Assembly (NCBI GenBank): GCA_963701075.1
Contig: OY969559.1
Span: 160,001-224,000 of the forward strand
DNA length: 64,000 nucleotides
From: an uncultured Nitrososphaerota archaeon
GTDB lineage: Archaea; Thermoproteota; Nitrososphaeria; Nitrososphaerales; Nitrosopumilaceae
Direction: 5' to 3'
Part shown: one piece after another, positions 6,217 through 13,807 of the stretch
How positions within the stretch are numbered: position 1 is the first letter of the stretch
How the letters are laid out: the number at the start of each line of letters is the position of its first letter
Position numbers and translations under genes: made by a program
The notes under the pieces: model-generated
The model's database searches: none
What the model was told of the DNA's origin: nothing
The model's input: only the letters and a program-made list of their open reading frames with translations

Positions 6217-6471
6217 TCATTTGTAAACTTTTTTTCTGTGCTCAAATCTTAGCAGATATAGAACTGTTCCCTGATATGCATAGATGAGCCTGTAGGGTTT
6301 TACATAGACCGTCCTTTCACCTTTCAAGTCATATCTTAGCGGCTTTCCTAACTCAGGAGATTCTACTATGTTTTGTATCTGCTTTTGCAGTTTTTCTTTT
6401 AGTTTGCTATCTTTGATTTTTGTAACTTCTTTTTTGAACTTGTCAGACCATATTATTTGGGTAATTACCAT
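6217..6471 (-). CDS. RelE/ParE-family toxin
   Basis: GKPLRYDLKGER..YVKPYRLIY...FEHRKKVY; start at ATG 6471 overlapping the antitoxin stop. Confidence 0.85.
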   Translation of the reverse strand: MVITQIIWSDKFKKEVTKIKDSKLKEKLQKQIQNIVESPELGKPLRYDLKGERTVYVKPYRLIYAYQGTVLYLLRFEHRKKVYK

Positions 6472-6737
6472 TTGGCAAATTCCATAAAGAATTTGGATGT
6501 ATTGGCTTTTCCACCCTTGCCAGTTTCTATTTCCCGCCATGCCTCATGGATTGACTTGAGTGTTTTAATATCGTCCTGACTCAATTTTTGGTCTACCTTT
6601 TTTAGAACGATCAAACCTTTTTTTTCTGTTATGACAAATACGTTTCCATCCTTTATGTCAAGTTTTTTTCTTACCTTGTTTGGTATTACTATCTGTCCCC
6701 TGCTGCTAACTGTGGTGAACATGGTTTCATTTGACAT
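6465..6737 (-). CDS. AbrB/MazE/SpoVT-family antitoxin
   Basis: VSSRGQIVIPNKVRKKL.I.DG motif. Confidence 0.88.
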   Translation of the reverse strand: MSNETMFTTVSSRGQIVIPNKVRKKLDIKDGNVFVITEKKGLIVLKKVDQKLSQDDIKTLKSIHEAWREIETGKGGKANTSKFFMEFAKW

Positions 6738-8581: not shown

Positions 8582-8605
8582 AGGTTCTGTCAACTTGATG
8601 GCTCA
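8582..8605 (+). mobile_element. Solo copy of the left terminal inverted repeat of the TnpB element
   Basis: AGGTTCTGTCAACTTGATGGCTCA identical to 10123-10146. Confidence 0.8.
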
Positions 8606-8634
8606 ATGGTTTGTAGTGACTTGGAGTTAACTAG

Positions 8635-8868
8635 TCATCCAAGAAGCCTTGAAAAATCTTCCACGCTCATTCCAGCATCATCTATTATTCTGCTCAACGT
8701 GCCTTTCTTCAACTCTTTATGCAAGGGAACAGTAAGCTTGATTATTTTATCAGCATGAACTTTTTCTAATCTCACATGACTGCCTTTCTGTCTTATGACC
8801 CTAAAACCAGCCTTACTGAGTGCCTTTATGACATCCTTGCCAGAAGTTATAGGTAGTTTGGTGCTCAA
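8635..8868 (-). CDS. hicA: HicA toxin
   Basis: GF..IRQKGSH...TVPLH.EL.KGTL..I motif. Confidence 0.92.
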   Translation of the reverse strand: MSTKLPITSGKDVIKALSKAGFRVIRQKGSHVRLEKVHADKIIKLTVPLHKELKKGTLSRIIDDAGMSVEDFSRLLG

Positions 8869-9056
8869 ATAGCAACCTCAACAATCTCCTTTCCTTCTGC
8901 TTTCTCAGTATATTCTAGATAAAGCTCTATGGCTTCTCGTATGTTGTGAAGTGTTTCTTCTTTTGTTTCACCTTCACTTATACATCCCGGAAGTGATGGT
9001 ACGTATGCAGTATAACCTCCCTCTTCTTGTGACTCGAGAACTACCTTGATCTTCAA
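8865..9056 (-). CDS. hicB: HicB antitoxin
   Basis: EEGGY.AYVPSLPGCISEGET.EE...NIREAIELYLE. Confidence 0.92.
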   Translation of the reverse strand: MKIKVVLESQEEGGYTAYVPSLPGCISEGETKEETLHNIREAIELYLEYTEKAEGKEIVEVAI

Positions 9057-9145
9057 CTGTTATAATTTTGTCTAGGTGATAAATATTGGTTCTGTTTGAT
9101 ATGTCTTATTGCCCTCAACTGGCAAAGTTACTTGAAATCTGGTCT

Positions 9146-10021
9146 CTACTTTATCTCTTCTATAAACAGATCAAGGCCTTTTTCTATAGTCATTGGCTTT
9201 TCCTTGAGAAGCGATGCTGCTTTTGATATATCAAGTGACGAATCTTTTGGCCTCTTGGCAGTCCAGTTCATGTCTGCCATATTGGTTGGCCTCAATAGTT
9301 TTTTGTCAAGGCCTAGCTTGTCTGCAACCATCTCTGCCATGTCGTATCTTGAGATTCGTGTTGCCCCCGATACGTGAAGTATTCCCTGAATCTTTCTAGA
9401 AGATATCTCAATTAACATTCTTGACAGATTTGGCACATATGTTGGAGATGTGTACTGGTCAGTTATGATATCAAGTGGGGTTTTTGCCCTGAGATTTTCT
9501 GCAATAAATATTGGAAAACTCTTCTTCTTTGGATGTATTCCGTATGGCGTGCTAGTTCTTGCTATACACCACTTTGTTGCAATCTCTTTTACTGCACTCT
9601 CGCCTTCTAGCTTTGATCTTCCATAATGATCAATTGGCTCGGTATTGTCGGATTCTTTTTTCATCCCATTTTCTCCGTCAAAGACGTAATCTGTTGATAC
9701 GTATACAAGAAATGCCCCTAGCTTTGTTGCCTGCTCAGCTATGATTGCAGTTGACTTGGAATTAATCTTTGTAGCAAGATCTTTTTGTGTCTCGCACAGG
9801 TCAACATTTGTCATTGCAGCCAGATGAATTATCACATCGGGCTTGGTTGACTCTACAACCTTGATGATAGCGTCTTGGCTTGTCAGGTCAAGCTGCGTTG
9901 CAATTCCATCTTCTGGCTTTGAATTATTGTAACAGGAATAGACGTGTGTGTATGATTGTAGAAGGTCCTTTACGACCTGCCTTCCTACAAGACCTGCTGA
10001 ACCTGTTACTAGAAATTTCAT
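9146..10021 (-). CDS. rfbD: dTDP-4-dehydrorhamnose reductase
   Basis: TGSAGLVG, STDYVFDG, YGRSK, DQYTSPT, RP.DSSL motifs. Confidence 0.93.
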   Translation of the reverse strand: MKFLVTGSAGLVGRQVVKDLLQSYTHVYSCYNNSKPEDGIATQLDLTSQDAIIKVVESTKPDVIIHLAAMTNVDLCETQKDLATKINSKSTAIIAEQATKLGAFLVYVSTDYVFDGENGMKKESDNTEPIDHYGRSKLEGESAVKEIATKWCIARTSTPYGIHPKKKSFPIFIAENLRAKTPLDIITDQYTSPTYVPNLSRMLIEISSRKIQGILHVSGATRISRYDMAEMVADKLGLDKKLLRPTNMADMNWTAKRPKDSSLDISKAASLLKEKPMTIEKGLDLFIEEIK

Positions 10022-10123
10022 CTTCGATTCACTCCATACCATAATCAAAAAACATGTTTTATTTCTTGTCTACGAGTTGTTTTGATGTGTTATTTCTTGT
10101 GTTTTGTTTGAATGCTAATCTTA

Positions 10124-11403
10124 GGTTCTGTCAACTTGATGGCTCATGGCAGGCATTGTAAACTTCTTGAGATATATCACAATTACCTGCTCTTTTAAGA
10201 AGATCAAAGATATCAAAAGCCTACCGTGTTATCAGTCAAATGTGTAACACAGAACCATCGCTGTGCCGAGATTGTACCAGTGATGAAGGATTTCAGGTCT
10301 GTTGTAAACGATGCAATAAAGCTGGGTATCGAACATAACATTACTTCGAGATTTAAACTACGAAGCCTGGTCTATCCAAGGTTTAACAAGATGATGTATT
10401 CTGGATATGTCTATACCGCAATTTGGAAGGCTTGTGCCATGCTCAAAAACTATCGCAGAACAAAAAAGAAGAATGCTCATGCCAGGATACCTGTCATGAA
10501 AAGTCACATCCTTGTAATTGATAACCAGAGATACGAGATAATCCACAACCATCTCAAGTTTCCAGTCAGGCCTAGGCAGTTTGTATACATTCCTCTCAAT
10601 CACTACGTTTGTAAAATTTTACTGCAACCAGGTCTGAAACTTGGTGAGGTTACATTAACTGAAGAAAAACTCTTCATATCTTATACAAAAGTGATATCCA
10701 AAAAGGAGCCAAAGGGATACATTGGAATTGACATGAACCTTGAGAACGCAACTGGCACAGATGAAAGCGGCACCACTACAATAGTAGACACATCTGATAT
10801 TGTATCAATGAAAGCAAAATACAGAGATGTACTGTCGCACTTTACAAGAAATGATGCCAAGATACAAAAGAGACTCAAACAAAAATATGGCAAGAAACAA
10901 AAAAACAAAGAAGATACATTCCTGCACCAGAAATCAAAGGAGATTGTATCACAAGGCAGGCAGGTCATAATGGAGAATCTCACCGGAATAAGAAGATTGT
11001 ACAGAAAAGGAAATGGTCAGGGAAAAAGGTTTAGGTTCAGACTAAACTCGTGGTCAAGATTCAAGTTGCAAAAGATGATAGAGTACAAGTCAGTTGATTG
11101 TAACGGCCTTGAAGTGATTTACATAAAACCAAATGGGACTTCATCGAGGTGTGCGACATGTGGGTCAAAACTAGTACCCGAAGAGCACCGAATGATGAGA
11201 TGTCCCTCCTGTCGTGTTACCACAGACAGGGACAAAAATGCCAGCAAGAATATTCTGGCTAGAGGCTTGGCAATGCTGGAACAGAAAGAACCAGCACGGT
11301 TCGAGCCTGACGCAGTGCAAGGTGAAGCGATGAAGCAGTTCAAAGATGTGGAGCAGATTGCACCGAGTCTACTTGTTGGACGAGCCATCAAGTTGACAGA
11401 ACC
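10124..11403 (+). mobile_element. Non-autonomous TIR-bounded element carrying only tnpB
   Basis: Perfect 25-bp inverted repeat 10121-10145 / 11382-11406; flanking direct repeat TAATCTT(A/G) at 10116-10123 and 11404-11411; exact ends ambiguous by 1 nt. Confidence 0.85.
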
Positions 11404-11416
11404 TAATCTTGTGTGA
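10226..11416 (+). CDS. tnpB: TnpB RNA-guided endonuclease (IS200/IS605 OrfB family)
   Basis: RuvC-I GIDMN, RuvC-II IMENL, zinc finger CATC..CPSC, RuvC-III DRDKNAS. Confidence 0.93.
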   Translation: MLSVKCVTQNHRCAEIVPVMKDFRSVVNDAIKLGIEHNITSRFKLRSLVYPRFNKMMYSGYVYTAIWKACAMLKNYRRTKKKNAHARIPVMKSHILVIDNQRYEIIHNHLKFPVRPRQFVYIPLNHYVCKILLQPGLKLGEVTLTEEKLFISYTKVISKKEPKGYIGIDMNLENATGTDESGTTTIVDTSDIVSMKAKYRDVLSHFTRNDAKIQKRLKQKYGKKQKNKEDTFLHQKSKEIVSQGRQVIMENLTGIRRLYRKGNGQGKRFRFRLNSWSRFKLQKMIEYKSVDCNGLEVIYIKPNGTSSRCATCGSKLVPEEHRMMRCPSCRVTTDRDKNASKNILARGLAMLEQKEPARFEPDAVQGEAMKQFKDVEQIAPSLLVGRAIKLTEPNLV

Positions 11417-11713
11417 CTCGTCAGCAATCTTTTGCGAGATGTAATCAACATTTTTTCGCATGCCCTGAACTACTGGACTGTCCATATTAATCGAGTAAAG
11501 CTTGGCGTTTGCGATCTTCCGGTTTACCCTAATCATTCCAAATTCAACGAGATTGTCAAAGTACTTGTAAAACGTAGTCTTGCTCATGCCTAGTGCCTCA
11601 ATTATCTCCTTTTGCATAAAGTCATTTTTTGGAAAGTCCATAAGATAAGACAGGATCTTCATCTGGGGCGAGCTGCCATAGGCCCTAAGAAGAAGGGGAG
11701 ATGATTCCGACAT
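11369..11713 (-). CDS. Winged-HTH protein; native C-terminus displaced by the TnpB element
   Basis: wHTH pattern (EIIEALGMSKTTFYKYF..LVEFG); native tail ISIQTKHKK* lies at 10090-10119. Confidence 0.75.
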   Translation of the reverse strand: MSESSPLLLRAYGSSPQMKILSYLMDFPKNDFMQKEIIEALGMSKTTFYKYFDNLVEFGMIRVNRKIANAKLYSINMDSPVVQGMRKNVDYISQKIADESHKIRFCQLDGSSNK

Positions 11714-11777
11714 GGTTTTATCTTCCTCTAAAAAGTATTTAAATCATAACTTTAGAAGGTATCATAAGTGTACCTAG

Positions 11778-12059
11778 TTGAAGGCTACGTTTACTGATGA
11801 CCAGCTACGCGCCCAGATCCTATACTATCTATGGAACCAGGGAAGCTGGTCTGAAATCTATACAAATATTGACAAGATGGTAAGAAGATTGGGAAATGTT
11901 GTAAAGAACAACGGAAAGAATACAATGAAAAAGGTGGAAGACCTTGTCAAATGGAACTGGGTTTTACCGCGCAAAAATTGGGATACGGTTTCATTGAATC
12001 CAATATTCAAGTCTCAAATTAGCCAGTACATAGGGTTACACTTGATTGGACAATCATAA
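11778..12059 (+). CDS. Hypothetical protein, divergent partner of the wHTH gene
   Basis: 93-aa ORF with W..I.T...VSLNP pattern. Confidence 0.6.
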   Translation: MKATFTDDQLRAQILYYLWNQGSWSEIYTNIDKMVRRLGNVVKNNGKNTMKKVEDLVKWNWVLPRKNWDTVSLNPIFKSQISQYIGLHLIGQS

Positions 12060-12072
12060 TGTCGTTTTTTGG

Positions 12073-12117
12073 TTGCCTTCCGACAAGTCCTGCAGAGCCT
12101 GTTACAAGAAATTTCAT
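12073..12117 (-). pseudogene. Displaced rfbD 5' fragment (copy 2)
   Basis: Encodes MKFLVTGSAGLVGRQ, identical in protein to the rfbD start, with synonymous differences. Confidence 0.9.
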
Positions 12118-12161
12118 ATTTGATTACCTGCCTTACCATTTAGAACCAGCGTATTGTATAC

Positions 12162-12485
12162 CTACAGTTTGATAGCCGCATCCCATCTCTTCTTTGCGGT
12201 CGGGCTTGCGTAAATCCATACTATCGAACCATCTTTGTCAAGCAATACCTTATTTGACTTTTCAAGATAACGCAAAATAACATTAAGAACTGGTGGCCTC
12301 ATGGTGACATCTAACTTCTTTACCAATTGTGCTTTAGAGTCAAACTCTTTGTACTCTGCAAGAAGCTGTTCGACTTTTAGAATATTTTTTAACGTAGGGT
12401 TATACTTTTGAATGCTTTTGTGCATGTCGTCTCTTGATTCCAAACCTGGATTGTGTTTTGCTACAAATACTGTCTTTGGTTTCAT
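12162..12485 (-). CDS. Putative wHTH-like antitoxin
   Basis: PTL..IL.VE...ILRYLEKSNKV...IVWI pattern; downstream of a RelE-like gene. Confidence 0.6.
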   Translation of the reverse strand: MKPKTVFVAKHNPGLESRDDMHKSIQKYNPTLKNILKVEQLLAEYKEFDSKAQLVKKLDVTMRPPVLNVILRYLEKSNKVLLDKDGSIVWIYASPTAKKRWDAAIKL

Positions 12486-12536
12486 GGTATACAATGCATT
12501 GCATACTTCTTGTATATATGTACGTACATTTATGTA

Positions 12537-12857
12537 TCAATAGCCAAATCTCTTATTGTATTTTTCATGATCGAATAATTCCATTAAAAGGGCTTTTTTC
12601 TCATTGTGTATTGCAGTTATACCATAAATCAAACGCCAATGGCCGGGCAGGTCTACCTTGAAGACGGCATTAACATCGTGTCTTTTGAGATAGTGTTTTG
12701 GAATCTGTTCTCGTTTTAGGCGAACCCCGACTATTTTATCACTTTTCAAATTACTAATGATCTCTTTTACAACCTTGTACAACGCATCATCTTTGTCAAG
12801 TGCATCATAGACAGGCATAAAGTCATCAGGATCTCCTCCTACTTCCATTCCCATCAC
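12537..12857 (-). CDS. Putative RelE-like toxin
   Basis: IPKHY...VFKVDLPGHWRLIY...ELFDHEKYNKRFGY. Confidence 0.65.
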   Translation of the reverse strand: MMGMEVGGDPDDFMPVYDALDKDDALYKVVKEIISNLKSDKIVGVRLKREQIPKHYLKRHDVNAVFKVDLPGHWRLIYGITAIHNEKKALLMELFDHEKYNKRFGY

Positions 12858-12872
12858 ATAACTTGACAGAGA

Positions 12873-12968
12873 TTAAAACTTGATACTCAGCTGTTTAGAT
12901 CTTGTTTTGAGGTCTTGTATGACCTGCCTTCCGACAAGTCCCGCAGAGCCTGTTACAAGAAATTTCAT
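12873..12968 (-). pseudogene. Displaced rfbD 5' fragment (copy 3)
   Basis: Encodes MKFLVTGSAGLVGRQVIQDL then diverges to a stop after 31 aa; 45/46 nt identical to copy 2. Confidence 0.9.
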
Positions 12969-13026
12969 ATATCATTTACACCAAAGGACTTGTTTTTAAA
13001 ATCAGATCATATACTTGCAACTTTTT

Positions 13027-13483
13027 TTACCTGAATATCTCATCTTTGTTCTTTATTATAGTATGTTCCTCTTTTTCTATGCTGTTAACAAGTTGCCTTG
13101 CCTCATTTCTTGTGACTACATCATCCTTGATTGCAAGCCTCAATATCCTTGGTAGCGAAAAATAATTCATGTTATCTCCCTTGCACAATCTATGCACTAT
13201 CTTTTCATTGCTTGCAAGTGGAATATTTCGGTTCTTTGCTATAACATAGCATTCTTTTTCTCCCTTGTCAAGCTTCACTGTATGCATACTTTAGATCCTT
13301 TAACTCACCGGTTGTTAATTGAACAAACTCAGGACCAAGCTTCTTGATCTCTATTTTTCCTTCCGCAAGTTCAACCTTTACTGATGGTGGTACAATAATA
13401 GCTTCAAAAAGTTTGTTTAATATATCAAGCCTCCCAATTCTTGCAAAAATGCTCAGCATGTCTGTATCGACAACAATCTTCAT
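13027..13483 (-). CDS. PIN-domain toxin (DUF3368-like), apparent +1 frameshift near 13271-13275
   Basis: IVVDTDMLS N-terminus and LDKGE.EC...ASNE C-half in different frames; one-base removal gives 151 aa. Confidence 0.8.
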
Positions 13484-13486
13484 TCA

Positions 13487-13807
13487 TTACCTGCTCTTGA
13501 TCTTTTCAATCACACTGTCCATCTTTGACGCGCTTTCTGCTTCTATTACCCTCTTGATGCCGTACTCTTTTAGTTTCTCCTTGAATTCTATTATGCCAAC
13601 ATCTGCAATCTCGGCTGCCTTGCCAAGGGTGACCTCTCCCTTTTTGTATAGTCCCACTGCAGCTGCAAGTCTTAGGTTCTTTTTATTGCTGAACATGTAT
13701 CTGAGGGCGTCCTTGACAACATCGGACTTGCTTGAATAATACCCTGATTTGACCAGCTCGTCTATTTCCTTCTTGACTATTTCTGGCAGGTTGTAGCTTG
13801 AAGGCAT
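13487..13807 (-). CDS. Ribbon-helix-helix + UPF0175-type antitoxin
   Basis: LVKSGYYSSKSDVVKDALR and LYKKGEVTLGKAAEIA motifs. Confidence 0.8.
   Translation of the reverse strand: MPSSYNLPEIVKKEIDELVKSGYYSSKSDVVKDALRYMFSNKKNLRLAAAVGLYKKGEVTLGKAAEIADVGIIEFKEKLKEYGIKRVIEAESASKMDSVIEKIKSR

Follow-up and report, generated by a model that had tools for sequence, protein, structure and literature searches.

A clade of archaeal TnpB-only elements bounded by terminal inverted repeats and 8-bp target-site duplications

What TnpB does for its transposon, namely restoring it after scarless excision, has been worked out for IS605 and IS607 elements, which make no duplications and insert beside a fixed motif acting as the TAM. 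In the passages cited here, IS200/IS605 elements are described as carrying neither terminal inverted repeats (TIRs) nor target duplications, IS607 elements are likewise described as devoid of both (PMC13565253, PMC3119063), and elements that encode TnpB only are assigned to the IS1341 group (PMC13565253). For IS6/IS26 elements, the sections cited give GGTTCTGTTGCAAA as the bacterial end consensus, in which GG and a G at position 7 are nearly universal, and report 8-bp duplications for bacterial as well as archaeal members (PMC6807381). Prokaryotic TnpBs linked to DDE transposases are described as having inverted ends, with the 3' end of TnpB near the transposon end, and movement in trans is assumed for solo TnpBs whose ends are nearly identical to theirs (PMC10691335, in the part cited). 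The DDE partners of TnpB named in the corresponding part of a 2026 review are ISL2, IS630 and IS1031, and the same review ties the rarity of OMEGA in DDE-type transposons to the duplication-free homing of the IS605/IS607 style (PMC13565253). Fanzor, according to the passages cited, is a TnpB homologue in transposons of eukaryotes and giant viruses that have TIRs and duplications and often no transposase of their own (PMC3627910, PMC13565253); its TAM includes the 5' duplication, and the 3' duplication lies in the RNA scaffold (PMC13565253).

Here we describe a tnpB locus within a window of 64 kb, i.e. the whole stretch of archaeal DNA that was analysed, and compare it with these systems. An initial annotation, made from the letters of the window, had read the locus as an intact tnpB captured by a non-autonomous element that is mobilised by a DDE enzyme. 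Its premises, that IS200/IS605 and IS607 elements lack TIRs and duplications and that IS6 ends come with 8-bp duplications, agree with the cited parts of PMC13565253, PMC3119063 and PMC6807381. As for the further proposal of a prokaryotic parallel to Fanzor, its general form was already published in 2023 (PMC10691335, in the part cited); DDE-linked TnpBs with inverted ends, solo copies included, are already known since that year.

The unit extends from 10124 to 11403 and contains tnpB as its single gene. An inverted-repeat search identified a perfect repeat of 25 nt (100% complementary) with arms at 10121-10145 and 11382-11406, of which three nucleotides are due to the flanking 8-mer, since it starts with TAA and finishes with TTA. 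The register of the element was set from the GG at 10124 to the CC at 11403, as in the whole family. With up to three mismatches allowed, the 22-nt core of the repeat is present in three copies in the window (8583 and 10124 on the plus strand, 11382-11403 on the minus strand), whereas the number expected by chance is 0 (100 shuffles). Indeed, we could confirm the 1.28-kb unit with perfect inverted ends that had been noticed initially, which measures 1,280 bp and has identical 22-nt arms, and the flanking duplication of 8 bp was found with the single mismatch reported for it (Table 1). An A/T-rich, TATA-like stretch (10193-10198) is located about 30 nt upstream of the start codon, and the left part of the element is a putative promoter region.

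Table 1 Features of the TnpB element and its surroundings in the window.
Feature	Position	Strand	Basis and remarks
Solo repeat copy, left-end orientation	8583..8604	+	30 nt from the hicA stop codon
ATG, TAM-like motif	10112..10114	+	Separated from the duplication by 1 nt, whereas the family motif abuts it
Left target-site duplication, 8 bp	10116..10123	.	7/8 identical to 11404-11411
Left terminal inverted repeat	10124..10145	+	Family consensus extends 3 nt more, to 10148
Untranslated left part, 80 nt	10146..10225	+	Sequence only; no conserved hairpin
tnpB, 396 aa, GTG start	10226..11416	+	Pfam match, alignment, structure matches
Presumed omega-RNA scaffold	11264..11403	+	Covarying helices 11264-11269/11302-11307 and 11313-11320/11358-11365
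Terminal hairpin	11367..11397	+	Right repeat supplies the 3' arm (its inner 16 nt); loop 11380-11384 holds the stop position
Small host ORF	11369..11713	-	Last codons replaced by the insertion
Right terminal inverted repeat	11382..11403	-	Inverted-repeat search and family end motif
Right target-site duplication, 8 bp	11404..11411	.	Predicted guide nt 1-8
Predicted guide segment of the omega-RNA	11404..11423	+	Placed by inference from the end of conservation at 11403; length assumed

The unit is not confined to the window. An alignment-seeded genome scan returned at least 80 loci, the best among the matches listed being 57% identical, and in Nitrosopumilaceae and Bathyarchaeia the same ends flank tnpB relatives whose proteins share 36-57% identity with that of the window, including loci at 36-48%. 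With six mismatches or fewer allowed, the 22-mer is found beside tnpB in many of the 80 loci retrieved, and a 12-nt end motif is matched at 10 or more positions at the right end of 26 and at the left end of 18 of the 37 full-length copies. The ends of the clade begin with GGTTCTG, and the consensus of their first 16 nt is GGTTCTGTTAACTTGT; the repeats comprise 22-25 bp, and the termini are symmetric (GG...CC). The elements are 1.2-1.3 kb long, the full-length one encoding a conserved protein of 385 aa and a structured RNA, and two deletion derivatives of 690 bp (L041) and 894 bp (L032), from which most of tnpB is missing, still have the two ends and short repeats in their flanks. The genes next to the related elements vary by locus and are ordinary housekeeping genes. 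The unit, which carries neither a Y1 nor a serine transposase, belongs to an old clade of TnpB-only elements in Nitrososphaeria and Bathyarchaeia.

Both ends could be placed for 21 elements, the window copy among them. L003, which has a weak repeat and a duplication of 2-4/8, and L025, which has an ambiguous left end, were excluded from this set, and for L002, L009, L031 and L035 the left boundary was picked within +/-3 nt to maximise the match of the duplication. The flanking 8-mers agree at 8/8 positions in eight elements, at 7/8 in five, at 6/8 in one and at 5/8 or fewer in seven, i.e. a convincing duplication is absent in 7 of the 21 elements. For 19 elements, the mean match in register is 5.68/8 compared to 1.74-2.58 at 12 other offsets. 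Three pairs of related copies (L013/L016, 85% nucleotide identity; L017/L024, 88%; L007/L009, 84%, both on one contig) have flanks that are about 50% identical, which is random-like for a global alignment, and their 8-mers differ. Because related copies differ in their 8-mers as well as in their flanks, the 8-mers do not belong to the element itself. From this we conclude that they are true 8-bp target duplications and that the unit is a mobile TnpB-only element with TIRs and duplications. Copies with the same TIRs at new sites and with new duplications, which had been named initially as a check, were thus observed.

The protein encoded by the window element matches the Pfam family Cas12f1-like_TNB (PF07282) with 58.2 bits at a cut-off of 26.3, and sequence matches to solved TnpB and Cas12f structures reach E values down to 3e-11. 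In an alignment of 21 sequences, the RuvC-like triad D169, E250 and D336 (codons at 10730, 10973 and 11231) and the zinc-finger cysteines C309, C312, C326 and C329 (CxxC...CxxC) are invariant, so that the earlier description of a TnpB with all three RuvC acidic residues and the zinc finger is borne out. The GTG start is backed by relatives that begin at the same alignment position. We also considered a frameshifted N-terminus, for which an out-of-frame ATG within the left repeat, the start of a frame of 33 codons, would provide the start, and rejected it, since the relatives start at the position of the GTG. The closest protein relatives carry Nitrosotalea names, which points to a Nitrosotalea-like archaeon as the source of the window, and relatives at 83-89% identity exist. 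The best TnpB matches in collections of plasmids and phages are less than 30% identical over most of the query and reach up to 36.6% over short stretches, and a close relative with a useful annotation was not found there.

The 3' end of the gene is informative with regard to the repeat. Twelve of 19 aligned relatives (51-89% identity) finish with ...SLLVG followed by the stop codon, and most of the others go on for only 2-4 residues past SLLVG. The other loci and the reversed left repeat imply a TGA at 11381-11383, where the window copy reads CGA, which is the reason why its open reading frame continues for 11 further codons through the right repeat into the flank. Judging from this alignment, the stop codon of the family coincides with the inner edge of the right repeat, and it is mutated in the window copy. 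Apart from the missing family stop codon, the tnpB of the window looks intact, and this loss may be detrimental to the copy. As a side observation, the ends of the window copy are perfect, but its stop codon is lost and one position of its duplication is mismatched.

The right repeat also appears to be part of an RNA. We aligned the 3'-terminal 200 nt of 25 elements and derived a structure with RNAalifold, which placed two helices in the 3' end of tnpB (Table 1) with 97.8% of the cells paired and 91 cells doubly changed. Ten of the 13 helix pairs are changed on both sides, values that were reached in none of 500 shuffles, and in a control in which the partners were slid by 1-3 columns the pairing falls to 32-43%. 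The helices are followed by the terminal hairpin and by six unpaired nucleotides, which are the last nucleotides of the element; this architecture of the terminal hairpin recurs in most of the 14 right ends that were folded (last 60 nt). At the left ends, only one of 10 folds shows a hairpin and an IS605-type hairpin is not conserved, from which it follows that the ends are not of the IS605 type. Conservation within the family stops at 11403, i.e. at the end of the right repeat. The RNA of the window folded alone is unremarkable (z = -1.23), and an Rfam search of 9800-11800 gave no match at E values up to 1. The case for an RNA is based on covariation and not on stability. We presume that this structured RNA at the 3' end of tnpB, which reaches the end of the transposon, is the omega-RNA. 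A recent capture of tnpB does not agree with these data, because the ends are common to the whole TnpB clade and both the stop codon and the RNA incorporate the right repeat; the association of the TIRs with tnpB is ancient, in contrast to the capture suggested initially.

Which enzyme moves the elements was addressed by a search of the window and of the related loci. Apart from tnpB, none of the 65 ORFs of the window matches a transposase family, the unit itself being free of a transposase as had been stated initially. Among 96 ORFs that neighbour 20 related elements at a distance of up to 3 kb, no transposase domain was found other than that of a second tnpB. A Y1 (HUH) TnpA is absent from both sets of ORFs. 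In an all-against-all BLAST of 1,157 ORFs, no neighbour family was found to recur at the archaeal loci. A position-weight scan of the window and of L001-L045 recovered the known ends, the two deletion derivatives, a second tnpB in L026 and solo ends. For the 18 additional repeat-like hits, a partner arm within 3.5 kb was found in no case (best 14/20 matches), and the ORFs near these hits are not transposases. An autonomous partner with the same ends, the identification of which had been proposed, was found neither in the window nor in the approximately 6 kb on either side of the related loci. Of the DDE-mobilised element postulated initially, the mobile unit with TIRs and duplications is confirmed, but the DDE enzyme was found neither in the window nor beside the 20 related elements.

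A DDE partner of the clade is nevertheless what we infer from the ends. As in IS6/IS26 elements, the ends start with GG and have a G at position 7, the first 9 nt being GGTTCTGTTGCAAA, and the duplications have a length of 8 bp; unlike IS6/IS26 elements, the clade has no gene for a DDE/H-HTH transposase but only tnpB, and its repeat is longer (22-25 nt). The clade also resembles the DDE-associated TnpBs in that its TnpB is located within inverted repeats, is accompanied by duplications and has its 3' end near the transposon end. However, a DDE gene accompanies the clade at none of the loci examined, and its ends are similar to those of IS6/IS26, whereas IS6 is not among the partners ISL2, IS630 and IS1031 named in the cited part of the review. 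In the literature we found no account of the clade or of IS6-like ends around tnpB, a search in which 'IS6' is inseparable from IS605/IS607, and, in the parts of the sources cited, no TAM next to a variable duplication with TnpB; the supplements of PMC10691335 may list or cover the clade.

The positions in front of the left duplication revealed a further regularity. In 12 of the 21 elements, a TG terminates exactly 8 nt upstream of the left repeat, directly abutting the duplication, compared to 0-3 elements at 15 other offsets and a background frequency of 0.063 (binomial tail 7e-10). At position -3, 20 of the 21 elements have an A or a T; the motif is written here as WTG. Among the 14 elements with a duplication of at least 6/8, eight have the abutting TG. 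The mirror image, a CA that follows the right duplication, was seen in 4 of 21 elements (P = 0.05), and the asymmetry of 12 vs 4 has a Fisher p of 0.025. That WTG could be the start codon of a host gene was considered and rejected, as only 3 of the 12 motifs open an ORF longer than 90 codons.

The location of WTG suggests that it is the TAM, and the guide would most likely consist of the duplication and the right flank. Two guides had been proposed initially, the flank beyond the right repeat and the right repeat itself; the former is favoured and the latter disfavoured by the end of conservation at 11403 and by the WTG that abuts the duplication. Like Fanzor, the TnpB of the clade is carried by an element with TIRs and duplications and no transposase of its own. 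However, the duplications of the clade vary, and the guide would begin with these 8 nt; since they vary, they cannot be the TAM, and the arrangement must differ from that of Fanzor.

We consider it probable, with moderate confidence, that the clade comprises TnpB-only elements that are moved in trans, make 8-bp duplications, use the duplication and the flank as guide and WTG as TAM. The element would be moved by a transposase encoded elsewhere, which makes an 8-bp staggered cut and which, judged by the ends, is most likely an IS6/IS26-like DDE enzyme. tnpB would be transcribed from the left part, and the 3' end of the transcript would fold into the omega-RNA, with the right repeat as its last hairpin and its final 6 nt, so that the sequence beyond the repeat, i.e. 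the 8-bp duplication and the right flank, would act as the guide. In the empty allele, WTG would be contiguous with the 8-mer and the right flank and TnpB could cut, whereupon repair from the occupied copy would restore the element. Where the element is present, the right 8-mer would be preceded by the repeat, which is not a TAM, and the left copy would match the guide for 8 nt only. Owing to the missing TAM and the match of only 8 nt, the element would be spared from cutting.

This reading has to be weighed against several others. WTG could represent the target preference of the DDE enzyme that moves the element, in which case the guide might, for instance, be the right repeat, aimed at sibling elements or solo ends. 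We regard this as unlikely on balance: the weak enrichment of the mirror CA on the right is in line with it, as are the solo repeats in the window and the 18 repeat-like hits in related loci that have no partner arm within 3.5 kb, and part of the WTG signal may indeed reflect a palindromic target preference of the transposase rather than a TAM. The motif is, however, asymmetric, the repeat is conserved throughout the clade like a scaffold, and a guide derived from the repeat would match the element's own two ends. In known TnpBs, by contrast, each insertion site brings its own guide. A reading without any separate transposase, in which TnpB itself acts on the ends or helps to choose a site adjacent to WTG, appears very unlikely to us. 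It would be in agreement with the lack of a transposase in cis or near the 21 elements, with ends that were kept while the proteins diverged to 36% identity, and with an insertion point anchored exactly 0 and 8 nt from the TAM-like motif; on the other hand, the sampled flanks comprise about 6 kb per locus, which is compatible with a partner elsewhere in the genome, and the deletion derivatives L041 and L032, which retain both ends and flanking repeats, fit a supply in trans. To our knowledge, no TnpB is known to transpose DNA, and the active site of TnpB has the RNase H/RuvC fold. That TnpB, alone or together with an RNA ending in the repeat, takes part in integration without a separate transposase, by anchoring the insertion beside its own TAM or by a direct action on the repeats, is, in our estimation, likewise very unlikely; if so, it would explain the asymmetric WTG at one duplication length from the left end as well as the absent partner gene and the conservation of the ends despite a protein identity of 36%.

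The clade could also be regarded as an ordinary IS1341-type (IS200/IS605) element that is served by a Y1 TnpA in trans, the repeat being nothing but two similar subterminal hairpins viewed on opposite strands. Similar to that group, to which TnpB-only elements are assigned in the cited part of PMC13565253, the clade encodes tnpB only, has a similar size and has an RNA structure that overlaps the 3' end of the gene, and its right end carries a subterminal hairpin followed by 6 nt. We nevertheless judge this reading to be highly improbable: 14 of the 21 elements have 8-bp duplications, whereas IS200/IS605 elements make none according to the passages cited (PMC13565253, PMC3119063), a left-end hairpin was seen in only 1 of 10 folds, and the termini are symmetric (GG...CC). 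Compared to IS1341 elements, which are described in the parts cited as having hairpin ends, no TIRs or duplications and a fixed target of 4-5 nt adjoining the insertion, the clade has TIRs as well as duplications, and its hairpin is conserved at the right end only. The probability that a plain TnpB element fell by chance into an unrelated MITE is, in our view, close to negligible. A solo repeat at a distance of 1.5 kb in the window would fit such an event, and, like MITEs, the clade is non-autonomous, has inverted ends and duplications and includes derivatives of 690 and 894 bp. But a full-length copy differs from a MITE in having a conserved protein and a structured RNA, and it is within the right repeat that the stop codon of the family and the last hairpin of the RNA are found. 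The initial annotation had considered an insertion into a MITE for the case that the unit occurred only here; this case does not apply, because the unit recurs at 20 or more other loci in several genera and two archaeal lineages.

The interest of the clade lies in the dual use of the repeat, in the duplication as guide and in the question of what moves the elements. The clade suggests that an element that makes duplications uses the duplication as the start of its guide and persists only where WTG abuts it. If this is true, RNA-guided homing would serve a second major class of prokaryotic transposons, and the clade would offer a compact archaeal nuclease with a short TAM as well as a clean system to ask whether TnpB influences the landing site of a transposon.

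Regarding the surroundings, the identity of the solo repeat at 8583 halts at the inner edge of the repeat, and no partner arm is located nearby. A composite element of 2.8 kb, ranging from 8583 to 11403, was considered and rejected, as its outer 8-mers do not match. At the right end, the insertion affects a small ORF of the host (Table 1), which has no Pfam match; after removal of the element in silico, this ORF comprises 110 codons before the junction and 11 after it. The wider surroundings in the window consist of a rhamnose, glycosyltransferase and sulfotransferase island together with several toxin-antitoxin pairs.

When its right end was aligned with 24 others, the window copy of the tnpB element was found to carry a 27-nt insertion, which is positioned between both strands of the first helix of the presumed omega-RNA scaffold and is predicted to fold into a hairpin extension of its own. 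Through the same insertion, the window TnpB gains nine residues.

L001, a Nitrosotalea relative whose protein shares 57% identity with the window TnpB, is bounded by a near-perfect inverted repeat of variant sequence, and this repeat is not accompanied by a flanking duplication. Despite the absent duplication, an ATG is still located 8 nt before the left end, and the same pattern was seen at two further loci, L018 and L026, which suggests that the right flank was altered after insertion at all three. At L026, the element adjoins an ORF for a 3-hydroxyacyl-CoA dehydrogenase, the start ATG of which lies inside the right repeat of the element. In the reconstructed empty site, a 290-codon frame is opened by the WTG preceding the duplication, and the gene's own start codon may have been swapped for one supplied by the element.

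Copies of the terminal repeat that lack a partner arm are present in the window and at the related loci L012 and L037. The window solo copy ceases to match the tnpB element precisely at the repeat's inner boundary, an endpoint that would be unexpected for a random deletion.

Coordinates of repeats and neighboring features.
Feature	Sequence	Position
27-nt insertion	window	11270-11297
Inverted repeat, 34 nt, 1 mismatch	L001	5908-5941 and 7117-7150
3-hydroxyacyl-CoA dehydrogenase ORF	L026	7157-8047
Solo repeat	window	8583-8604
Solo repeat	L012	about 5443
Solo repeat	L037	about 11681
rmlD-like gene (minus strand)	window	9146-10048
Family D1, 74-nt copies	window	9963-10036, 12059-12132, 12910-12983
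Small gene pairs	window	6220-6737, 8635-9056, 12162-12857, 13027-13807
CRISPR-associated genes	L002	5653-8235

The window element is located within a patch of crowded small gene pairs, which are interspersed with sugar-nucleotide genes. Among the pairs are a ParE-like and a MazE-like protein, HicA and HicB, and a small protein partnered with one of the UPF0175/RHH type. Several other small ORFs had no match in Pfam. A repeat search of the window further identified family D1, a 74-nt stretch in three copies (74-80% identical). The first copy spans the start of the rmlD-like gene, and the other two are, judged by sequence, orphan copies of the first ~14 codons of this gene; each is located at the edge of a small-ORF block. 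From the family D1 copies, it looks as if small cassettes had been inserted repeatedly at the rmlD 5' end.

At L002, a Nitrosotalea MAG locus, CRISPR-associated genes encoding Cas6 and a TM1802-family protein are located 2-5 kb from a tnpB element.
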